From an uncultured Gammaproteobacteria bacterium (GTDB taxonomy: Bacteria; Patescibacteriota; Microgenomatia; UBA8517; JACQJR01), in assembly GCA_964442455.1 (NCBI GenBank), contig CAYTZB010000005.1, positions 5,152 through 69,151 of the forward strand: DNA of 64,000 nt, written 5' to 3'. This document shows positions 5,859 to 54,427 of the stretch, piece by piece; the first letter of the stretch is position 1, and each line of letters opens with the position of its first letter. A program made the translations under genes and the position numbers. The notes under the pieces are model-generated. The model saw only the letters and a program-made list of their open reading frames with translations. It made no database searches and was not told the origin of the DNA.

Positions 5859-6834
5859 TAATTAATTGGAGCGTCTTCTCAACAAGAGCTTTTTGGGAAT
5901 TCCATAAGAGATTGTCTATAGGTTCAACAAGTATTTCTCTAAAACCCCCTTTATTAACAACAATAGGAATGCACCCTGCTGCCATACTTTCCACAACTGT
6001 AATCCCGAAATGCTCAACCTTTTCTGGCTCTTTTTCCTCATCAACACCAAATCCTGATGCTGACCAAAAAATTTTTGCTCTTGCGTAAAGCGATTTCAAA
6101 TGATTGAAATCTAGGCTTTCAATAATCTCTATTGGGTAACCTCTGGCTTCAAACCTCAAACTTTTAGCAAATTCTTCTCCTCCAATATCGCTTCCTCCTA
6201 CAAGAATAAGCTTCCATCCTTGCAAACCCCCATCAACCATTGTTTTAAATACCGACACTAACACATCTTGCCGTTTTGCTTGAAGGAGCTGGGAAAATCT
6301 TCCAACAGAAAGAATAACATCAGCTTTAGTTTTATGACCCGCCTTGCCGTCGGGCAGGTTTATATCATCGAACTGACCAACATCAACTGGTGGATATATA
6401 ACAACACTATCTACCCCATATTCTTTATCAATAAATTTCTTTGTAAACTTTGAATTACATACAACTTCATAAATTCTTCTTAACTTCAATCGATTAAAAA
6501 GTGATTTTCCTCTCACATTATGAAATGGAACTTGAAAGTGCAGAATATTTTTCTTGGCATATAAGCGTGGAATACTTCCATCTGATAACCAAAAACACAA
6601 ATCATATTCTCTTCCCTTATGAATGCTAGAGACAACTCTCACGCCAGATAAATCTAGCCCCAATCTATCTTCCAGTTTTTTTAATATTCCAGCATCATCC
6701 CATCCTACATCCACCTCCCACCCACTCTTTTTCAAAACGTGAGCAACTGTCATCACATACCGTTCCCCACCACCAAGAGTATCCAAATATGGATTGTAAA
6801 TTGCAGCCCTCATAGCCTTCTTTGCATTTCCCAC
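5755..6834 (-). CDS. Glycosyltransferase family 1 (GT4-type, GT-B fold)
   Basis: 359 aa. C-terminal 'EHFGITVVESMAAGCIPIV' is the classic GT1 E-x7-E region. Confidence 0.75.
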   Translation of the reverse strand: MGNAKKAMRAAIYNPYLDTLGGGERYVMTVAHVLKKSGWEVDVGWDDAGILKKLEDRLGLDLSGVRVVSSIHKGREYDLCFWLSDGSIPRLYAKKNILHFQVPFHNVRGKSLFNRLKLRRIYEVVCNSKFTKKFIDKEYGVDSVVIYPPVDVGQFDDINLPDGKAGHKTKADVILSVGRFSQLLQAKRQDVLVSVFKTMVDGGLQGWKLILVGGSDIGGEEFAKSLRFEARGYPIEIIESLDFNHLKSLYARAKIFWSASGFGVDEEKEPEKVEHFGITVVESMAAGCIPIVVNKGGFREILVEPIDNLLWNSQKALVEKTLQLINDEKRRKILSHIVQQISKQFSQDRFEYEISKITA

Positions 6835-9706: not shown

Positions 9707-11446
9707 CTAATCCACTTGGTAAATTACCACCTCTTCATTTTCAAAAATATTGGTTAAACCAAGCTGAGATTCCCCCAAACGGAATCGTTGGCCAAAAACC
9801 GGAGTTTGGGACAAAACCAGATAAAGATATCTAATTTTATTATCTTTTAAGAAATTTCTTACTTCGTTCTGATTAAGACTTTCAAGAGGAATTCTTGAAT
9901 CTTCACGTCTATGTCGCCACTCGTACCCTGTAATATCTAGATTTACCTCGTCTTCAAGAAAAACAGGTTTTTCAGAAAACGCAGAAACATATGCAGTTGA
10001 CTCATACAAATAGAGCGGGCGTGGTGGGTTATTAACTGCGGCTTCCGCTTTTAATCTATCAAACGGATAGGTAAGTACTACACCACGAGGTTGCCTCTCT
10101 AAAAATCTTAATGCCTCTAACTCCTCATGCGATATTTTTGCCGGCGGTCGTCCAGGTAAATAATGAAGTGTAAGCGTACTAATTGTGGTTGGGATAGTTA
10201 ACAAGATAAGACCTACTATTGCCAATTTACTTAATTTATTTTCTTCTACTAACTTACCTATAAAAAGTCCTGTATAAATTGCAAAAACAAAAAGAGAATA
10301 GTAAAAGAATTGAATTGTATTCCATGGAGTACCGGACTGTAATATCGCCATCGGCAAAACCGTTCCGAGAATCGCTATTGTCAAAAGGAAAACATCAACT
10401 TCTGAAAAATTTTTCCACAACCTTTGTTTAACAATACCCCATAAGCCGATCAAACGTGTTCCCATATTGCCAACAAAAAATATGACAAACGCTACGAGAT
10501 ACGCAGGAATAAGTTTTATCAATATGCCCCCTGTCTTGTAATTCATCATCGCCTCATAAAATCTCTGCCAGCCGAATCTATCTGATACTGCCATCATCGT
10601 CTCCAAGAACCAAAATGGTTGAAAAACAACTAATTGCCTTGCAGACTTGCCAGTTAGCCAGAGCAATGCAACTCCAAGTAAAAAAGACCCTAAAAGAACT
10701 ACCAAAAAATTACTTTTAAATGCGAATTTTCTAATATGGATTATTTCGAACAGTACCACCAACCCCAATCCTCCCATCACAAGTAGCCACGCATAAATTT
10801 TTATTTGCGCCAGCACGCTAAAAATTAAAATCGTAAATCCTAAATTCCTAAATCTATTTTGAAGACTCAGTAGAAGAATCATTCCTAGAAGAATTAAAAC
10901 AAGTGATGCAGCAAACGGTGGGTTAATGAGAGTTGATATTGCCTGTTGGGCCCAGAAAAGAGATTCCCCTCCAACCACGCCATCACGAAACAATGTAGCA
11001 ATCCACCCAAAATCCCCCGCAAAATAGACAAAAAAAGTAGCCCAGAGCGCCTGTGTTCTTGACTTTCTCCAGGCAAGCACAAACCAGTACGTCAAAACCC
11101 CAACCAAAACTGCAAGTAGTGGGGGGAGAATTTGAAAGTACAGTGTATGGGCTGGGATACTCGTAATCTTATGAATGATAGCCAAAGCGAGATCAAAACC
11201 AATATGATAATTTTTAATCTGCTCTCCTGAAAAAATAGGCATTTCAAGAGAACCACGAGATAAGTGATTAATTAATGCAATATGCCATACCCCGTCATGC
11301 CCATTCGGTCCCCAAAATCCCATACCAAATGGATATATAAGACCGCTTTTTACCATAGTAAGACTCCAGCTAAGGGCGCCTGTTAAAACCAATAAAATTA
11401 TTCCAATGTTTTTCTTCACTTTTTTTAAAACTCTATGAAGCTCCAC
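9707..11446 (-). CDS. Polytopic membrane protein, putative GT-C-type glycosyltransferase/polymerase
   Basis: 579 aa, at least 10 predicted TM segments. Sits between a GT2 and the Wzx flippase. Confidence 0.45.
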   Translation of the reverse strand: MELHRVLKKVKKNIGIILLVLTGALSWSLTMVKSGLIYPFGMGFWGPNGHDGVWHIALINHLSRGSLEMPIFSGEQIKNYHIGFDLALAIIHKITSIPAHTLYFQILPPLLAVLVGVLTYWFVLAWRKSRTQALWATFFVYFAGDFGWIATLFRDGVVGGESLFWAQQAISTLINPPFAASLVLILLGMILLLSLQNRFRNLGFTILIFSVLAQIKIYAWLLVMGGLGLVVLFEIIHIRKFAFKSNFLVVLLGSFLLGVALLWLTGKSARQLVVFQPFWFLETMMAVSDRFGWQRFYEAMMNYKTGGILIKLIPAYLVAFVIFFVGNMGTRLIGLWGIVKQRLWKNFSEVDVFLLTIAILGTVLPMAILQSGTPWNTIQFFYYSLFVFAIYTGLFIGKLVEENKLSKLAIVGLILLTIPTTISTLTLHYLPGRPPAKISHEELEALRFLERQPRGVVLTYPFDRLKAEAAVNNPPRPLYLYESTAYVSAFSEKPVFLEDEVNLDITGYEWRHRREDSRIPLESLNQNEVRNFLKDNKIRYLYLVLSQTPVFGQRFRLGESQLGLTNIFENEEVVIYQVD

Positions 11447-32458: not shown

Positions 32459-32533
32459 GAAAACTCAAGATACATACTGTATACTCATCTTACTTGAGTT
32501 TTCAACTTTTAAGCCTGCCTGCCGGCAGGCAGG
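32459..32533. promoter_or_regulatory. Divergent intergenic region holding a long imperfect inverted repeat (GAAAACTCAAG...CTTGAGTTTTC, 32459-32503) and a perfect 20-bp GC palindrome CCTGCCTGCCGGCAGGCAGG (32514-32533)
   Basis: The 11-bp arms are read directly from the sequence. The GC palindrome is nearly identical to CCTGCCTGCGCAGGCAGG inside the 7263-7433 element. Confidence 0.5.
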
Positions 32534-32566
32534 GTATTCGTATATACCTGTTTTACATCATTTTTA

Positions 32567-47256: not shown

Positions 47257-48009
47257 CTAGTTACTACAACCTGGCCCGGGAGATGTATTTCCAGTGGAGT
47301 AAAGTACATCCATACCTAATTTATCCCCTAATCCTAAAGTTCGCTTCTGGGTTTCTCCAAGACCAGCAAATCTATAGGAAGTTAGACAACCATCTTTAGG
47401 GGCATTCGTATGATCAAGTCCCGCAACATGAAGCCATTCATGGGTAAGAGCATTTTGAACATCATAAGTTGTTGGACTGTCCCCAACTGACCATGGCTCA
47501 GATGTGTCAATTGTTATAACAAAACCGCCTATTTCCTTTGTCGCAACATTACGACAAACACGAGCGGAAGCAAGAGCGCCACCCTCTCCATCAATTGCTG
47601 TCCATTGAACAGTATTTGGATCCCCAGTACAGAGGTTTTCTTGAGCGGTAGAATCGTCCCGACTAAATTCACGAGTGATTATAAACCCATCAACTATATC
47701 TTCTGCATCAACAATCGCAGTATTACCCCCACTTACCGCTTCTGTTCCTGTAATCTTATACTCAACCATACCACCAGCAAACCATTTAATCCCCCCTTGC
47801 GTTAAATGAAAACTATTAGATTCTGTAGTCGGATGAGGACCAGGACCAGCATGAGTATCAGCTCCATAATCCACAAATACCTCTTCAACCCACTGCAGAC
47901 TGGGGGCGGTGACTCTTTTAGACGGAGCAGCAGAAGCAGGAAAGACAGCGAGAATTAAAAGGGTAAAAGCTACTATAGCAGTTGTTATTTTGCTAACACT
48001 AAAACTCAT
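47257..48009 (-). CDS. Secreted zinc metalloprotease, metzincin type (matrixin/snapalysin-like)
   Basis: 250 aa with a signal peptide. 'HEWLHVAGLDH' is the HExxHxxGxxH zinc-binding motif. Confidence 0.7.
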   Translation of the reverse strand: MSFSVSKITTAIVAFTLLILAVFPASAAPSKRVTAPSLQWVEEVFVDYGADTHAGPGPHPTTESNSFHLTQGGIKWFAGGMVEYKITGTEAVSGGNTAIVDAEDIVDGFIITREFSRDDSTAQENLCTGDPNTVQWTAIDGEGGALASARVCRNVATKEIGGFVITIDTSEPWSVGDSPTTYDVQNALTHEWLHVAGLDHTNAPKDGCLTSYRFAGLGETQKRTLGLGDKLGMDVLYSTGNTSPGPGCSN

Positions 48010-49160
48010 GGAGCGGTGGGGAGACCAAAACCGGCGTCGGGGTCATCGCCTACTCTTCCAATATCTGCATAGTTGTTGAGCGCTCTATTTTGAAGATAAG
48101 TCCTGGTTGCTGCAGCCGTCCCTTGCCATACTTTGGCAGAAAGACCGGCAACATGAGGGGTTGCCATTGAAGTACCAGAGATAGTGTAATAACACCCATT
48201 TTTCCAAGTTGACTCAACCGAAACTCCTGGTGCCGCAAATTCTATATCGCGCGCTTCTACCACATATGGGGTAGTGTTGTAGTTGTTACCGCGTGAGGAC
48301 CAGTTGGCAATTGCATCGCTTGAATTTATTGCACCAACCGCTACCACATTCGCAAGCGCGGCGGGATAAAGAATTGTGTTATCCGCTGGCCCACTATTTC
48401 CCGCTGCTGCCACAATGAGCACTCCTTTGCCAACTGCATAATTAAAAGCATTTACCTCATCTTGTGTTATTGAAGATCCCCCAAGACTTAGGTTAATAAT
48501 ATTCGCTCCGTTGTCAGCTGCATAGCGAACACCCCTGGCAATATCATCACTCCAGCATAAACCTCCGTTTGAGCATACCTTAATAGCCATAATCTTGGCA
48601 GCGGGCGCAACTCCCAAAATTTTCCCATTGGCTGCAATCGTGCCTGCCACATGGGTACCGTGCCCGTTCCCATCACTACATCGAGCGAGAATTGTTGAGT
48701 ATTGTGCATCGCGGCAATCAACAATGTTGTTTTTCAAATCCGGATGGTCTTTCTTAACACCGGTATCAATAACCGCTACTTTAATTCCACTTCCCGAGCC
48801 TGCCTGACCACCGTTCACCTTCGAGATGCCCCATGGTGTCTGGGTAGATGGTGAACAAGTTGCTTGAGTTTCACGATGGGAAGCGACAGAGGGAACTTCA
48901 AGAAGTTGCCACTGACTCGCCATTCCGCGGAATTCTAAATTGGGGTTTGTTTGTAATCGCTCTATAGTTGAAATGGGTGCTTCTATAGAGAAGACACCAT
49001 CACCAAAGTCATGATGAATATAACGGGAGATTGAAGTTAAAGCTGTGGGAGACGTAACTTTAAAGTACGCCCGACCAATTTCTTGAGCTTGAACGCTGGA
49101 GAGGATTGTTCCTGCAAAGAATGCAACTACAACCGCAAAGATAATGAGGAGTTTTTTCAT
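48006..49160 (-). CDS. Subtilisin-like serine protease (S8 family), secreted
   Basis: 384 aa with a signal peptide. The catalytic triad motifs are 'VAVIDTGV', 'HGTHVAGTIAA' and 'GTSMATPHVAG'. Confidence 0.85.
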   Translation of the reverse strand: MKKLLIIFAVVVAFFAGTILSSVQAQEIGRAYFKVTSPTALTSISRYIHHDFGDGVFSIEAPISTIERLQTNPNLEFRGMASQWQLLEVPSVASHRETQATCSPSTQTPWGISKVNGGQAGSGSGIKVAVIDTGVKKDHPDLKNNIVDCRDAQYSTILARCSDGNGHGTHVAGTIAANGKILGVAPAAKIMAIKVCSNGGLCWSDDIARGVRYAADNGANIINLSLGGSSITQDEVNAFNYAVGKGVLIVAAAGNSGPADNTILYPAALANVVAVGAINSSDAIANWSSRGNNYNTTPYVVEARDIEFAAPGVSVESTWKNGCYYTISGTSMATPHVAGLSAKVWQGTAAATRTYLQNRALNNYADIGRVGDDPDAGFGLPTAP

Positions 49161-49175
49161 TACGGTATCTCTACT

Positions 49176-49631
49176 TTACACCAGCATAGATTCTGTGTCA
49201 AGCATTATTTTGCGGCTATTTTCATCAAATTGCTCAAAATTAATCCAAATAGTACTTTTTGGAAGAAATCTTCTTATCTTTTCCGCCCATTCAATTGCAA
49301 TAATATTCTCCTGTTTCCCCCAAATCTCACCAAATCCCAAACCTTTAATTTCATGCTCAATATTTTTTTCTAATCGGTAAAGGTCCACATGATAGAAGTG
49401 GGTGATTGGGTTATTGGGTGGCTGGGTAACTAGGTAATGGCGCATAATTATGAACGTTGGTGAGATAACCCTTTTTTTAATTCCCAAACCTTCTGCCAAT
49501 CCTTGGACAAATGTCGTCTTCCCGCTTCCTAACTCTCCCACCAGCGCCAAAATCTCACCGCCTGAAAGTTTCCGTGCAAATCTTTTCGCAACTCTCTCCG
49601 TTTCCTCTGATGAATTTGTAACAATTTCCAT
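49176..49631 (-). CDS. tsaE: tRNA t6A37 biosynthesis ATPase TsaE (YjeE)
   Basis: 151 aa. 'GEILALVGELGSGKTTFVQGL', 'SPTFIIMRHY' and 'HVDLYRL' are TsaE motifs. Confidence 0.8.
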   Translation of the reverse strand: MEIVTNSSEETERVAKRFARKLSGGEILALVGELGSGKTTFVQGLAEGLGIKKRVISPTFIIMRHYLVTQPPNNPITHFYHVDLYRLEKNIEHEIKGLGFGEIWGKQENIIAIEWAEKIRRFLPKSTIWINFEQFDENSRKIMLDTESMLV

Positions 49632-49637
49632 AGTTCT

Positions 49638-49663
49638 GTTTTAATGTTTCGAAACATTAAAAC
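49638..49663. promoter_or_regulatory. Perfect 26-bp palindrome GTTTTAATGTTTC|GAAACATTAAAAC, 7 nt upstream of the tsaE start (copy 1 of 3)
   Basis: Read directly. The core TGTTTCGAAACA is shared with the copies at 50564-50589 and 51087-51110. Confidence 0.6.
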
Positions 49664-49686
49664 AATCATCAGCCCAATGTTTCTTC

Positions 49687-50583
49687 TCACTCTTTATCGG
49701 TATCAGTTAAATTTATAGTTTTTCTCTCTCTCATAAACACAATTGTCGTCCCAACAAGAAAACTTAGTCCTGTAATAATAAAGATTACAGGCAAAACAGG
49801 CAATTCTTTGAACCAACCGCCTATTTTTGTTTCCTCTCCTAGTGTCGGTGAAGGAGAAGAAGTTTGTCCCTCTTGCAAACCAAGTACAATTGGCTCTGAT
49901 GTTGGAGAAGGAGAATTTTTTGGGCTGGCCGTTGGCTTTGGCGTAGGAGTCTTTGTAGGAGTTGGAGTTTTGGTTGGGGTGGGAGTAGGTGTCTTTGTGG
50001 GCGTCGGTGCAAGAGTCTGCGAGGGGGTTGGGGTTGGAGAAGGAGTGGGAGAAGGTGTGGGTGTTTGAGGTATAGAGTTAGTCGATCCTTTAGTTGCAGT
50101 TTGTAAGATTGAGAATATCCCTGTACGATCAGGACTCCTCCCTATCGATATACCGTCACCAGGATTCGAAGTATACTGGTACTGATCAACAATCGCCCCA
50201 GAAGAATCAAAAAGCACCACATGATCCCATTCTCCGGCGCTGTTGGCACTGTTGTTTAAAAAGGAATCCATCTCTATAAAGGGGTATGTCGTGCTCGTAG
50301 TAACAAGATCAGCCAAGACTTTCTTGGTGCTACTCCCAGTATCGGTTGTAAAATCCGTATCGTCATCAAGCCAATAGGACTTTAAGAATTCAGCACTACT
50401 TGATGCATTATAAAACTCAACCCACTCAGGATTCCCATCAACCAAAAACTCATTTATCACCACCTGTGCAAAAGAATTCGTTGGGAAAACCAACCAAAGA
50501 ATAAAAAATAAACCTAAGGAGAAAACTGCTTTCGTTAAACCAAAGATAACTATATTCAATTTTGTTTTAATGTTTCGAAACAT
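49687..50583 (-). CDS. Lamin-tail-domain (LTD) cell-surface protein with a Pro/Thr-rich linker and a C-terminal TM anchor
   Basis: After the signal peptide, '[22 protein letters not shown]...YWLDDD' is an LTD. Then comes '(PTPS/PTKT)n', about 70 aa of low complexity, then '[24 protein letters not shown]'. Confidence 0.6.
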
Positions 50584-50589
50584 CGAAGC
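50564..50589. promoter_or_regulatory. Palindromic operator copy 2 (GTTTTAATGTTTCGAAACATCGAAGC), overlapping the ATG of the LTD gene
   Basis: The left half-site and the 12-bp core are perfect. The right arm diverges (CATCGAAGC vs CATTAAAAC). Confidence 0.55.
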
Positions 50590-50592
50590 AAT

Positions 50593-51060
50593 TTAGAGCT
50601 GTTTAGCTCTCTTCCTTTTGCGAATCTCCTCCTTAAGAGAAACCCATGCGTGGCTCTTTCTCCCAGGAAGCGAGAAAAGTGCTGCCATAGCTTCACCCAC
50701 ATCCAACCAAAACCGCTCCATCCGTTCATCTTGCAAAATGGTGTTCACTACCCGCTTATATCCAGAACCAGTGTTATATTGCAGTGAAATTTTGCCAATT
50801 GTTGATGTACTCACCCTAAGGAGTTTAGAAATCTCTCTCCAATCATACCCTTTAACCAAAAGAAGTGCGATTGCCAAGCGCTTAGAAAGCATTATCTGTT
50901 CAGTTGGAGATAAAAGATCTCGCAAGAAAACTGTAATCTCGCTTTTTATTCTTAAATGGGCAATTGTGCTTAAAAATATCTCAAAGATATGGGTGTAGAC
51001 TTCTTGGGAAATAGGGTACTTTGAAACTTGCGCCATAGATATATATCCATTATTGCACAT
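50593..51060 (-). CDS. TrpR-like YerC/YecD-family DNA-binding protein
   Basis: 155 aa. 'DLLSPTEQIMLSKRLAIALLLVKGYDWREISKLLRVSTSTIGKIS' matches the YerC/YecD (Trp-repressor-like) HTH region. Confidence 0.55.
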   Translation of the reverse strand: MCNNGYISMAQVSKYPISQEVYTHIFEIFLSTIAHLRIKSEITVFLRDLLSPTEQIMLSKRLAIALLLVKGYDWREISKLLRVSTSTIGKISLQYNTGSGYKRVVNTILQDERMERFWLDVGEAMAALFSLPGRKSHAWVSLKEEIRKRKRAKQL

Positions 51061-51086
51061 CTTAGTAATATGACTAGAGAGTGCAT

Positions 51087-51110
51087 GTTTTAATGTTTCG
51101 AAACATCGAA
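51087..51110. promoter_or_regulatory. Palindromic operator copy 3 (GTTTTAATGTTTCGAAACATCGAA), about 27 nt upstream of the YerC-like gene start
   Basis: Same motif as the other two copies. Its position is consistent with autoregulation. Confidence 0.55.
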
Positions 51111-51204
51111 ACCTAAGAAGTCGATGTAAATGTAATTCAATTTAATCGGTCAATGGTGGATTTATAAAAATGGATTAAGGATAACTTCCGAACCGAGTAA
51201 GCCC

Positions 51205-52326
51205 CTATTGAACGTGCCAGTACCAAGAGATTGTCTTCTCTCCGTGGTCAATGGCAACGAAGTTCATTGGTGAGCTACCACACGCGACTGTTCCTTTATA
51301 AAGTGTCCCGTCAACGGGCGCTCGTATGGCAACATTATCCGAGGTCATATCAAGCCCTGTATGCGGTCGGCCGCCATAAAAGCCCGTTCTTGCCCAGTAG
51401 GTCATGCCAAATCCCTGGGTAATACGTGGATTATCAATCGGCCACGCAAGGCTACCGGTAAACGGAAATGGACCGTCAGGCGCATTATCCCATTGGACAT
51501 CCCGAGAAGAAAGATATCCTGCCGGATCAACACTAGTCCCATCCTTTTGAATCTCAAAGTGAAGATGAGGTCCCGTTGAACAACCGGGAGAACCAGAGTT
51601 GCCAATGAGGGCAATCGTCGTTCCCTTATTTACCGGTTGACCATTTTTAAGGAGGGCTGCTGCATTGCGCATTGCGGCGGCAATGGCTGCTTGCTCGGCT
51701 CGCGCTTTACTCAACAGCTCCTGGAATCTCCTTTCATCATTTTTTGTGACTTCAAGGAGTTTCTGCTTTCCTGCACGCTGGCTAGCCAAGAATGCCCGCT
51801 GCTGTTCTAATTGTTTCTCAAGTTTTTCGAGCTCGGCCTTATCTTCCTCAAAACTTATTTGTGACGTTTGAAGGCGCACCAGCAAATTCTGGTCACGTTG
51901 CTGCACCAGCCGTAAATAATGGAGCCGAGAGAAAAGACTGGGGAGATCTTGGGAAGTCAGAAGAAAGACAAGCGGATCTCCTAATCTGACTAATTGATAT
52001 GAGGCTACCACTCGCTGCTCAAATGCGTTTGATAGCTCAACAATAGATATTTCAAGAGCATTAATTTTGGCGGAGAGTGAGGTAATATCTGCTTCCGTTT
52101 GGTCTATGCGTAACTCCGTTAATTGTATCTGGGTATTGAAATTCGCAATTTGATTGGCGAGGGTATTTTTTTGTTGAGAAAGCTCTATTAGTTTTTGCTC
52201 AAGTTGCTTAATCTCCTCAATCTTGCGCTGATAATCTTCCTCGAGACTTGCCCCTAAGGGAGCCACACTCACCAGAAGCACGATACCTGCAACAAAAAGT
52301 GCTGTAATCTTCGCAAACCAACTCAT
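51205..52326 (-). CDS. envC: M23-family murein DD-endopeptidase with an N-terminal coiled coil (EnvC-like)
   Basis: 373 aa. The N-terminal signal/TM is followed by a roughly 200-aa coiled coil. The C-terminal 'GPHLHFEI...HTGLD...IDHG' is the LytM/M23 motif set. Lies downstream of ftsE-ftsX. Confidence 0.75.
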   Translation of the reverse strand: MSWFAKITALFVAGIVLLVSVAPLGASLEEDYQRKIEEIKQLEQKLIELSQQKNTLANQIANFNTQIQLTELRIDQTEADITSLSAKINALEISIVELSNAFEQRVVASYQLVRLGDPLVFLLTSQDLPSLFSRLHYLRLVQQRDQNLLVRLQTSQISFEEDKAELEKLEKQLEQQRAFLASQRAGKQKLLEVTKNDERRFQELLSKARAEQAAIAAAMRNAAALLKNGQPVNKGTTIALIGNSGSPGCSTGPHLHFEIQKDGTSVDPAGYLSSRDVQWDNAPDGPFPFTGSLAWPIDNPRITQGFGMTYWARTGFYGGRPHTGLDMTSDNVAIRAPVDGTLYKGTVACGSSPMNFVAIDHGEKTISWYWHVQ

Positions 52327-52341
52327 ACAAGAATGCCCGCT

Positions 52342-53259
52342 TCATCTCATTTTAAGGTAGCGAGCAATGGCAAACCACGCTCCTACAATACCAATCAAAA
52401 GTGCAGCAGTCAATTCTATGCCGGCGAGTATTCCCAGTTGTGCAAGAAGAGTAGGTATCTCCCGCAAGATAGAAAGAATTTCACCAAAGTATTTTGCAAG
52501 ATTGGGCATTAAATATAAAAATAGGAGAGTAGCGGTAATAAATCCTGCAAGCGCTCCGGTGAGCGCATATATTATCCCCTCAAACAGAAACGGGGCGCGG
52601 ATAAATCCCGGCGTTGCCCCAATGAGCGTTAATACCTGTATTTCTTCCCGGCGGCTAGCAACACGCGTACCAATAACCACAAGCAATGTCAAAAGAGCAG
52701 TGACAGACAAAAACGAAAGAAGCGCCACGCCCCCTATTCTCACATATCGGGTAATCCTCTGCAGGTTCCCAATAACGGTAGCGAGTGACGTCTCTCCCCC
52801 CAAACTCGCCGTAAACTCAACACGGTCAACAATGGGTACTTGTTTGACCTCCGCAATCACCTCTTGTGTGTATGAAAGATTAGTTACGGAAAACTCAAGA
52901 GAGGCAGGCAACACATCAGGACTCACGAGTTCTGTAACCAAGGGATTGTCAGCGGTTTCTCTATAAATTTGCAACGCCTCCTCGTGAGAGACATAGCGAA
53001 TATCGCTGCGAACCCGAGCATCATTGGCGAGTTTTTGGGAAAGTGCGGAAACTGCTTCCGGAGTTGCATCATTTTTCAAGAAGGCAATAATTTGCGGCCG
53101 CGTTTCAAAGTAATGGAGTGTCGAAGTTGCGATGTATGCGGTAAATGCAAAAATAGTCGCAACAAAAAAAGTGAGCGTCATAACAAGGACTGCCGCAAGC
53201 GCTTGGTAGGGCGAACGACGTATATGAACAAGGGCAGTACGGAGATGTTGGGCAAACAT
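52342..53259 (-). CDS. ftsX: Cell division permease-like protein FtsX
   Basis: 305 aa, with TM1, a large periplasmic domain and 3 C-terminal TM. Paired with ftsE. Confidence 0.8.
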   Translation of the reverse strand: MFAQHLRTALVHIRRSPYQALAAVLVMTLTFFVATIFAFTAYIATSTLHYFETRPQIIAFLKNDATPEAVSALSQKLANDARVRSDIRYVSHEEALQIYRETADNPLVTELVSPDVLPASLEFSVTNLSYTQEVIAEVKQVPIVDRVEFTASLGGETSLATVIGNLQRITRYVRIGGVALLSFLSVTALLTLLVVIGTRVASRREEIQVLTLIGATPGFIRAPFLFEGIIYALTGALAGFITATLLFLYLMPNLAKYFGEILSILREIPTLLAQLGILAGIELTAALLIGIVGAWFAIARYLKMR

Positions 53260-53939
53260 TAACTTTCTTTATATTTTCCGTGTTCTTGGTCACGAACAAT
53301 TCTTCCACCACGCAACTCAATCACATGATGTTTCATTCTGTCCACAATATCATGATTATGGGTTGCCATAAGAACGGTTGTTCCATCCTTGTTAATGTCA
53401 CTCATCAGCTCCACAATTTCCCATGCGGTATCGGGGTCAAGGTTTCCTGTCGGCTCATCAGCCAAAAGCAATTTGGGATTGTGAGCAAGTGCGCGTGCAA
53501 ACACTGCTCGTTGCAGTTCTCCTCCTGCCAATTGTGAGGGAAATGCATCAACTCTCTCTCTCAGTCCTACACGAGAGAGTACTTCATGAGCCCTAGAGAG
53601 TTGCTTCTCTTCCGGTTCATCAAATACGGCCAGCGCTAGTGCGACATTCTCGCCAACGGTTCTGTCGTGGAGCAGTTTAAAATCTTGAAATACCACCCCT
53701 ATTCTTCTTCTGTAAAAGGGAATATCCTGGCTTTTTAATTGAGCGATGTTTTTCCCTCCAAAAAGCACGTCACCCGCATCAGGCATGAATTCGCGAAGAA
53801 TAATGCGCAACAACGTTGTTTTGCCCGCCCCTGAAGGTCCAGTAATAAAGGCAAACTCTCCCGGCTCAATAGCGAAGGAAATACCTTCAAGCGCTACGAT
53901 GGAACCAAATTTCTTAGAAACATCCTTAAAAGTAATCAT
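53259..53939 (-). CDS. ftsE: Cell division ABC ATPase FtsE
   Basis: 'GPSGAGKTTLLRII' is the Walker A, 'LAGGELQRAVFARAL' the ABC signature, and 'LLLADEPTGNLD' the Walker B. The start was moved to MITFKDV (53939). The ORF-track start at 54011 adds 24 unlikely residues. Confidence 0.85.
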   Translation of the reverse strand: MITFKDVSKKFGSIVALEGISFAIEPGEFAFITGPSGAGKTTLLRIILREFMPDAGDVLFGGKNIAQLKSQDIPFYRRRIGVVFQDFKLLHDRTVGENVALALAVFDEPEEKQLSRAHEVLSRVGLRERVDAFPSQLAGGELQRAVFARALAHNPKLLLADEPTGNLDPDTAWEIVELMSDINKDGTTVLMATHNHDIVDRMKHHVIELRGGRIVRDQEHGKYKES

Positions 53940-54427
53940 TACTCTATTATCTTTATCCTTCCCACATCCATCAACCATCCTGCTTTTTGACCCTTGAACG
54001 TTTCTCCCCACACTTCTACCTTTTTATCTACAAACTCATTGAGGTTGATAACAGAAGAGGTAAGGTAGGCATTCTGCGAAGGTCCTCCCTCTCTTTCCAA
54101 ATGATGCGTTCCTTCACCATCTATCCCGCCTTTTTTCAAAACGCCAGTTGCTGAGTCTCTGAATGTTTTAGTATCTTCCAACCCAATCCCTTCTCCGGTA
54201 ACTTTAGCACCGGGAGCTACTTCAAATTTTCCACTGATACCCGCTGGACCTTTCTGAGAGAGGAAATATCCCGTGAATATTCCCGCCCCAATAACTACCA
54301 ATACCGCAAGGAGCATTGGGCGCGGAAGGCCACGCACGAAAGAAAACTTCGCAAATAGCGTCGCTTTTTGTGGCACTGCTCTGGGTGCTGCTTGCTGCTG
54401 CTGTTGGGTTTGTTGTGTCGGGTCCAT
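53939..54427 (-). CDS. Hypothetical membrane-anchored protein (Gln-rich N-terminus, single TM)
   Basis: 162 aa. 'MDPTQQTQQQQQAAPRAV' is followed by the TM segment 'MLLAVLVVIGAGIFTGYFL'. The stop overlaps the ftsE ATG (ATGA). Confidence 0.4.
   Translation of the reverse strand: MDPTQQTQQQQQAAPRAVPQKATLFAKFSFVRGLPRPMLLAVLVVIGAGIFTGYFLSQKGPAGISGKFEVAPGAKVTGEGIGLEDTKTFRDSATGVLKKGGIDGEGTHHLEREGGPSQNAYLTSSVINLNEFVDKKVEVWGETFKGQKAGWLMDVGRIKIIE

Follow-up and report, generated by a model that had tools for sequence, protein, structure and literature searches.

Described HisR and TrpR Systems and the Locus Under Study

The YerC protein of Bacillus subtilis is HisR, and its ortholog from Ruminococcus gnavus binds its operator in vitro in a histidine-dependent manner (PMC9413887). 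HisR operators are 20-bp palindromes of the form cacTTTA-N6-TAAAgtg, and HisR is autoregulated in about half of the genomes; for TrpR, the half-sites are spaced by 8 bp (PMC9413887). Here, we analyzed a stretch of 64,000 nucleotides (64 kb; hereafter the window) from contig CAYTZB010000005.1, which contains a small gene coding for a TrpR-like protein and, around it, three copies of a 28-bp palindrome. An earlier note on this DNA, based on its letters and open reading frames (ORFs), had proposed that both belong to one autoregulated system. It had also stated that proteins of the YerC/YecD family have no established ligand or target, which is outdated given the histidine-dependent binding and the identity of YerC just described (PMC9413887). 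Comparison of the locus with its homologs indicated that the adjacent protein very probably has these palindromes as its operators, as predicted from sequence, and that such sites typically occur as a pair bracketing the regulator gene.

The Candidate Phyla Radiation (CPR, Patescibacteria) has very few recognizable regulators, and we know of none with an experimentally defined regulon. In the literature searched, no description was found of this regulator family or of the bracketing architecture in CPR. One paper briefly mentions a "trp repressor gene" at the head of a CPR tRNA-Trp/TrpRS-A operon (PMC5370408), and one downstream neighbor in the set of 80 loci analyzed below codes for a class Ib tRNA synthetase.

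The Regulator Belongs to a Longer Branch of the TrpR/HisR Superfamily

The regulator gene is located on the minus strand (50593..51036, 147 amino acids plus the stop codon), and its product corresponds to MBI2405595.1, from a "Candidatus Microgenomates bacterium" metagenome-assembled genome (MAG). The ORF can also be opened at ATG 51060, giving the 155 amino acids of the earlier note. Since the 120 listed homologs are all of about 147–150 amino acids and the aligned ones begin with MxQVSKYP, translation almost certainly starts at ATG 51036, and we corrected the length accordingly. The Pfam family PF01371 (Trp_repressor) matched residues 27–100 of the 155-residue ORF with 41.4 bits (cutoff 27), and all 120 listed homologs carry this domain. 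In contrast to this match, the YerC/YecD equivalog model TIGR02531 scored 25.1 bits, below its cutoff of 42.2.

A profile made of 30 family members matched the YerC/HisR-type structures 3FRW, 3G1C, and 3KOR with an E-value of about 1e-12, and E. coli TrpR was not matched at E ≤ 1 in this profile search of the PDB. The AlphaFold2 (AF2) model had a mean predicted local distance difference test (pLDDT) score of 78, with a confident helical core at residues ~11–102 and two C-terminal helices of lower confidence (106–121 and 129–146). Its best Foldseek matches were 3KOR, 3FRW, and 3G1C (template modeling (TM) score 0.77–0.82 on target), ahead of numerous E. coli TrpR entries, 1TRR and 1TRO among them. 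The model thus shows an all-helical TrpR fold with a helix-turn-helix (HTH). The N-terminal ~100 residues resemble YerC/HisR, also in the recognition helix (xSTxTIxxVN); the Lys/Arg-rich two-helix extension that follows (residues ~106–146) is family-specific, and it accounts for the difference in length between these proteins (147–150 amino acids) and HisR (<100). The family forms a separate branch of longer proteins, found only in Microgenomates and in a few other CPR MAGs. It has several paralogs per genome, unlike HisR with its single copy, and no second paralog was found in the window by tblastn. Neither were histidine-biosynthesis families among the 25 commonest Pfam families of downstream neighbors in the homologous loci, and the neighbors in the window (M23 peptidase, LTD protein, and tsaE) are not linked to the biosynthesis or uptake of histidine either.

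Three Copies of a 28-bp Palindrome Lie at Consecutive Gene Junctions

The regulator gene is followed on the same strand by a gene for a surface protein with a lamin-tail domain (LTD; 49687..50583, Pfam PF00932, E 4.7e-11) and by tsaE (49176..49631, Pfam PF02367, E 2e-35, TIGR00150), which codes for the ATPase subunit of tRNA t6A (N6-threonylcarbamoyladenosine) synthesis. The three putative operators, which as palindromes were assigned to no strand, are located at the junctions of these genes and share the 12-nt core TGTTTCGAAACA and their left 20 nt. O1 (49637–49664; TGTTTTAATGTTTCGAAACATTAAAACA) is the sole perfectly symmetric copy, and the outer right arm of O2 (50563–50590; TGTTTTAATGTTTC followed by GAAACATCGAAGCA) and of O3 (51086–51113; TGTTTTAATGTTTC followed by GAAACATCGAAACC) differs from that of O1. 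The earlier note had described O1 as a perfect 26-bp palindrome 7 nt upstream of tsaE: perfect it is, over 28 bp, starting 22 nt past the LTD stop codon and ending 5 nt before the tsaE ATG (49631). O2 starts 2 nt past the regulator stop codon (50593–50595) and contains the first ATG of the LTD ORF (50583–50581), the overlap with the LTD start codon already reported in the note. O3 lies upstream of the regulator as claimed, at 50 nt instead of about 27 nt because the start codon is ATG 51036, and its center is 64 nt from this ATG. O2 and O3 are 523 bp apart, center to center.

The three copies all fall within 1.5 kb of the window and are not expected by chance. With one mismatch allowed, the 12-nt core occurred three times in 64 kb vs. 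0.28 times expected, and none of 100 shuffled sequences reached three; a 22-nt version with up to three mismatches gave three occurrences vs. 0.00 expected. The dispersal that the note had named as the mark of a generic repeat was not found in the window, which holds no further copies. Each site can be read as four subsites at 8-bp spacing, TGTT-N4-TGTT-N4-AACA-N4-AACA. This is the half-site spacing of E. coli TrpR, which binds as tandem dimers (entry 1TRR is titled as tandem binding) and with which the family also shares the fold, the operator overlapping the -10 region, and, in all probability, autoregulation. The half-site sequence differs from that of TrpR, and the Microgenomates family has a second operator at the 3' end of the gene.

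Pairs of Palindromes Bracket the Regulator Gene in Homologous Loci

One genome per GTDB species was scanned with an alignment of the family, yielding 256 stretches that encode a relative, and the best 80 of the 256 were retained together with at most 10 kb of neighboring sequence per side. These loci represent Woese-, Levy-, Gottesman-, Shapiro-, Davies-, Curtiss-, and Roizmanbacteria as well as unclassified MAGs. Two further loci, L082 (100% identity with the window along its entire length) and L083 (with the same two sites), represent the genome of the window and were not taken as independent. An unbiased search for long palindromes was followed by a scan of every locus with its own 24-nt reference, in which as many as five mismatches were tolerated. 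The unbiased search revealed in most loci one palindrome of 24–34 bp just before the ATG and a closely related second one just after the stop codon. An upstream palindrome was present in 69 of the 80 loci, its center 13–69 nt before the ATG (mode 15–16), and a downstream one in 68, centered 4–74 nt past the stop codon (mode 17). Both occurred in 64 loci, 467–568 bp apart, and the two copies of a locus agreed on average at 24.5 of 28 positions. Further copies within the 10-kb flanks were rare, nearly all sites being at the two flanks of the regulator gene. The sites are hence conserved near the orthologs, a comparison that the earlier note had called for, although the unit conserved is the pair that brackets the regulator gene and not, as the note had it, a row of sites at consecutive gene starts.

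The closest relative, L081 (an 89%-identical ortholog), has the same order of M23 peptidase, regulator, LTD, and tsaE genes and keeps both flanking sites as the perfect palindrome TGTTTCGATGTTTCGAAACATCGAAACA. Its outer block is changed from TTTTAA to TTTCGA symmetrically on both arms. L063, a Gottesmanbacteria homolog of only 38% identity, carries exactly the same 12-nt core on either side of the gene. The order FtsX, M23 peptidase, regulator, and LTD is itself conserved at 40–50% protein identity.

Bracketing was not confined to the regulator gene. In L063, a third copy lies beyond the adjacent kinase-like gene, and two operator copies (sites 9403 and 9958) enclose this AAA_33/KTI12-like gene; in L085, two copies (5919–5946 and ~7605) enclose a two-gene HAD (Cof-type) operon. 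One copy in these cases lies between convergent gene ends.

The Type of Palindrome Changes With the Recognition Helix

Palindromes differed among subfamilies together with the recognition helix of the adjacent protein. Proteins with the helix RVTPPTIASVS had sites with outer arms AGTG or AGTA and a center ATAT or ACGT, and those with RVSAxTIASVN had sites of the type AA-ATCA-TTAA-AGCA. The helix KVSKSTVG went with ATAA and RVSKPTIA with ACCA, and the group formed by the window, L081, L063, L053, and L056 with AACA. In genomes with two or three paralogs, a different palindrome was found at each paralog. The layout common to the family is TGxT-N4-TGxT-N4-AxCA-N4-AxCA, again four subsites with an 8-bp period, and arm positions 2–6 and 11 were the most symmetric. 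Outer and inner 4-mers are equal in the AACA, ACCA, and TACA classes; that they are always identical was considered and rejected, as it fails in the large ATCA class, which makes the model of four equivalent subsites only suggestive.

With regard to HisR, the family has in common palindromic operators and autoregulation, and several Microgenomates subfamilies share the half-site CACTTTA...TAAAGTG. The operators are longer (24–34 bp, 28 bp with four subsites in the window, vs. 20 bp), and in the subfamily with arms equal to the published HisR half-site these are 14 nt apart vs. 6 nt in HisR. Besides, they bracket the gene on both sides. The pairing of both sites in 64 of the 80 loci, the co-variation of site and protein, and the promoter overlap described next all support the proposal that the palindromes are the operators of the regulator and that it would control its own gene.

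Upstream Sites Overlap Promoter Elements

An exact TTGACA was found within -50 to -9 of the site center in 28 of 69 upstream sites, in none of 68 downstream sites, and at 16 of 1540 random positions, and it clustered at two offsets, -22 and -35. At offset -22, a spacer of 17 nt separates it from a -10 element formed by the right inner half of the palindrome (TATCAT), and the ATG follows 6–9 nt beyond, so that mRNAs of this class would be leaderless or nearly so. At offset -35, the spacer has 18 nt and the -10 element is the left-arm TTTAAT preceded by TG. Since TTGACA occurs at fixed offsets upstream and is absent downstream, the upstream copy is predicted to be an operator overlapping a sigma-70 promoter, and the downstream copy would therefore be something else. 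The first ten residues of the regulator, MxQVSKYPIS, are unusually conserved across the family (51036–51010 in the window, and in all loci), M1, Q3, and S5 being invariant. Because many mRNAs of the family look leaderless or nearly leaderless, part of this conservation may reflect a role of the nucleotide sequence in the initiation of translation.

A candidate promoter for the regulator gene of the window lies on the minus strand at 51049..51076, with TAGTCA as -35 element (51076–51071), a 16-nt spacer, and a TG-extended -10 element AATAAT (51054–51049); O3 would then be located just upstream of the -35 element. The extended -10 candidate is part of a block, TGCAATAAT, that is conserved in L081, and GATGTGCAATAAT is also conserved between the window and L081. 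An alternative promoter, TTAAAA-17-TATTAC, overlaps the right arm of O3. A consensus promoter scan of the window gave 5 promoters vs. 5.1 expected in shuffled sequences, so the assignment is uncertain and rests on the conservation in L081.

The Downstream Site and the LTD Gene

In 59 of 79 loci the gene after the regulator is co-directional with it, and in the other 20 it is convergent, although some of the convergent calls may hide small ORFs. LTD genes account for 11 of 61 co-directional downstream neighbors and are found in the closest relatives of the window; the pairing of regulator and LTD gene pointed out in the earlier note is therefore kept within the orthologous group. Other partner families are FeS_assembly_P (6) and His_Phos_1 (4), the latter a phosphatase superfamily and not related to histidine biosynthesis, and the rest are diverse, including RecA and TatD.

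The methionine that starts the L081 LTD protein (MKAVF..., L081 10531) corresponds to a threonine (ACG) in the window (50557–50583). As a consequence, the LTD protein of the window starts either at ATG 50583, inside O2, or at TTG 50559, 3 nt past the site. The LTD start ATG lies inside the palindrome in the window and in L001, L004, and L021 (N-termini MFRNIKT, MNRFIKV, MIQITKS, and MIRITGL, respectively), and 0–4 nt past it in L006, L013, L017, and L007. It is thus plausible, from this conserved arrangement, that in the lineage of the window O2 also controls the abutting LTD gene. The encoded protein consists of a signal peptide, the LTD, a Pro/Thr-rich linker, and a C-terminal membrane anchor.

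The general role of the downstream operator would be tied to the regulator unit, either through cooperative binding or looping with the upstream site or as a boundary or roadblock, and the C-terminal extension is a candidate for the contacts between dimers. In mechanism only, such an arrangement would resemble LacI with its O1/O2/O3, GalR, and DeoR, in which an auxiliary operator lies hundreds of bp away (401 bp between lac O1 and O2; 467–568 bp here). The proteins belong to unrelated families, however; the auxiliary site is here placed exactly at the 3' boundary of the gene across the family, and looping is putative.

The tsaE Site and the Wider Distribution of the Core

The site before tsaE, present in the window as the earlier note had claimed, is absent from the same position in L081. 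Between the LTD and tsaE genes of L081, at ~11410–11435, where the window has O1, there is an unrelated hairpin, GTTACACCCTTACATAAGGGTGTAAC. A third site was found in only two of the twelve LTD-group loci examined, L006 and L007, where it abuts the ATG of a short gene of the TsaB/TsaD family, after tsaE (L006) or after tsaE and tsaC (L007). Three lineages thus have a third operator in the t6A gene cluster, at different genes, and the tsaE part of the claim was only loosely echoed outside the window. Inclusion of tsaE in the regulon is plausible on this pattern, and would be specific to the species.

Metagenomes were scanned for TGTT-N4-TGTTTCGAAACA-N4-AACA, for which we assume, as a rough estimate for 20 specified bases, a chance expectation below one. 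The scan returned 99 stretches, of which 80 were fetched. About 30 of these 80 contain a regulator homolog adjoining the site, often with the second flank. Most sites with no regulator were of the form TGTTACYATGTTTCGAAACATRGTAACA, between co-directional genes with 0–25 nt on each side. In three orthologous loci with 60–69% identity, the gene downstream of TGTTACYATGTTTCGAAACATRGTAACA codes for Ham1/ITPase (L088 1176, L113 1002, and L143 789), and other genes directly 3' of these sister-lineage sites code for a DUF84 NTPase, a NUDIX hydrolase, TGT, a GNAT acetyltransferase, a short-chain dehydrogenase, and Wzy_C. The Ham1/ITPase, DUF84 NTPase, NUDIX, and TGT genes may point to nucleotide house-cleaning and tRNA modification as a common theme. 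The operator may mark a wider set of units in the sister lineage, for which a modest regulon fits better than a generic repeat.

A Predicted Autoregulated Repressor and the Alternative Explanations

Taken together, the 147-residue protein is probably an HTH repressor of the TrpR/HisR superfamily, with the three palindromes as its cognate DNA operators and its own gene among its targets. Two dimers would bind side by side on the four subsites, as E. coli TrpR does on tandem half-sites. O3, at the promoter of the regulator gene itself, would mediate autoregulation. O2, which has no -35 element of its own, would be a further anchor that binds cooperatively or forms a loop with O3, a roadblock or occluding site gating the LTD gene, or both, and O1 would place tsaE under the same control in the species of the window. 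Within this model we infer repression as opposed to activation, the stoichiometry of binding, looping or a roadblock, and the existence of a small-molecule effector.

Several observations weigh against the model. Its support is comparative throughout. In the window and in L081, the upstream operator is unusually distant from the ATG (64 nt from its center), and O3 is located upstream of the best candidate promoter or at its edge, so that simple occlusion of the -10 element is not evident here. The downstream sites have no -35 box and are kept in at least six loci with a convergent ORF ending 10–76 nt past the regulator stop codon (L018, L074, L060, L055, L073, and L030; the ORFs of the last two and of L055 are long). 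For both reasons, the downstream site cannot simply be taken for an operator of the gene that follows. The spacing of the two sites showed no helical phasing (Rayleigh p 0.46–0.73), which is uninformative at ~480 bp and lends no support to looping. The tsaE site is missing from the nearest ortholog, as mentioned above. Finally, about 50 of the 80 fetched metagenome stretches have no regulator inside the stretch, and in the sister lineage the core is found at many junctions, which means either that regulons are larger or that part of the sites spread as repeats.

The position of O3 led us to consider that the regulator might act as an activator in the lineage of the window, or as a dual regulator. 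O3 would then be centered at about -57 from the predicted start, which is typical of class I activators, and O2 and O1 would be factor-dependent promoters of the LTD gene and tsaE. The distance of 64 nt to the ATG shared with L081, and the conserved extended -10 candidate in TGCAATAAT downstream of the site, would fit this arrangement. So would the outer arms, since O2 and O1 each carry there an extended -10-like TGnTTTAAT, TGnTnnnAT is found on both strands in the sites of the window and of several other subfamilies, and the junction sites are so close to start codons that a separate promoter would not fit in. Against it, most members of the family have TTGACA at a spacing of 17 or 18 nt with the -10 element inside the palindrome, the classic geometry of a repressor. 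The promoter calls in the window, moreover, were no commoner than in shuffled sequence, and TrpR and HisR are repressors (PMC9413887). We consider activation rather improbable, and favor repression.

Still less probable is a role of the palindromes as RNA hairpins between cistrons (terminators or 3'-end stabilizers, RNase III processing sites, or start-hiding elements for translational coupling), with the protein being irrelevant or RNA-binding. The sites are placed tightly between stop and start codons, O2 holding the LTD ATG 2 nt past the upstream stop codon, and they persist between convergent genes. As RNA, O1 folds into a full hairpin (-10.6 kcal/mol, z = -3.5), whereas O2 (-5.2 kcal/mol) and O3 (-8.4 kcal/mol) fold in a slipped register. 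Mismatches between arms, however, showed no G.U bias on the sense strand (65 of G.U type, 86 of A.C type, and 139 others); upstream and downstream sites were alike in this respect, the downstream sites alone having 32 of G.U type and 44 of A.C type. Specific bases are conserved (ATGAT/ATCAT and TGxT/AxCA) and not mere pairing, and at upstream sites transcription would start inside or beyond the palindrome, so that the hairpin would not be transcribed. Rfam 15 gave no match at E ≤ 1 in 48900–51500, nor did the window as a whole yield any at the gathering score. A structured RNA element was rejected on account of this empty search, the lack of wobble bias, and the weak folding of O2 and O3. An intrinsic terminator was discarded as well, since the scan called none at the three sites, whose stems are AT-rich and have no T-run.

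A repetitive extragenic palindromic (REP) or miniature inverted-repeat transposable element (MITE)-like repeat that is only by chance next to the regulator could account for the 99 metagenome stretches, many with no regulator and with sites wedged between genes, yet we find it very hard to reconcile with copies restricted to 1.5 kb of the window and nearly always to the two flanks in homolog loci of 20 kb, with sequences that co-vary with the adjacent protein and are distinct at paralogs of one genome, with synteny kept at 40–50% protein identity, which argues against mobility, with the absence of a transposase, and with the regulon-like retention of the site before Ham1 in three orthologous loci. 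REP elements with a REP-associated tyrosine transposase (RAYT) were excluded on similar grounds, as the flanked gene codes for an HTH regulator with no transposase domain and there are only three local copies.

The repressor model can be extended, more tentatively, to the family as a whole. Microgenomates might possess an expanded and previously undescribed branch of TrpR/HisR proteins, in which the C-terminal extension would let two dimers or a tetramer fill a 28-bp operator and bridge the operators at the 5' and 3' boundaries of a unit, closing a loop or insulating it. At least ten distinct protein/operator specificities would coexist, several per genome, each tied to one neighbor gene; we see this as a possibility that is less likely than its alternatives combined. 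In addition, the putative targets of the TGTTTCGAAACA group lean to tsaE, tsaB, TGT, Ham1/ITPase, the DUF84 NTPase, and NUDIX, which hints at a nucleotide-related effector.

To our knowledge, operators bracketing a gene are unusual for bacterial repressors. As the cognate operator can be read from both ends of each gene, the family offers dozens of directly testable protein/site pairs and a naturally occurring range of specificities from which the recognition code of the TrpR fold could be worked out, and its short, mutually distinct repressor/operator pairs may serve as parts. If looping or two-sided insulation were true, it would represent compact regulation in genomes with almost no intergenic space. 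For the window, the model predicts conditional regulation of the LTD surface protein and, in this species, of tsaE.

Gene Order and Other Features of the Locus

The stretch 49000–51800 was read directly. All genes of the regulator region are on the minus strand, including the M23 peptidase gene upstream of the regulator (51205–52326) and genes for S8 and M10 peptidases. A conserved order was observed in the window (~47257–54011), L006 (7958–13832), L007 (5210–10467), and L081 (7105–11901): ftsE, ftsX, M23 peptidase, TrpR-like regulator, LTD, (VanZ), tsaE, (tsaC), a short tsaB-like gene, and then secreted S8/M10 peptidases. In this order, t6A genes stand together with genes for cell division and the cell wall.

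Many GTDB MAG records with a locus of Microgenomates type (among L001–L080) bear the title "uncultured Gammaproteobacteria bacterium" or "Pseudomonadales," in all likelihood a placeholder or an erroneous taxon name. A GC-rich intergenic palindrome with no Rfam match, AAGCCTGCCTGCCGGCAGGCAGGGT, was also noticed at 32512–32535 of the window, and the near-identical CCTGCCTGCCGGCAGGCAGG occurs in unrelated Microgenomates loci (L067 14279, L068 7375, and L050 12019).

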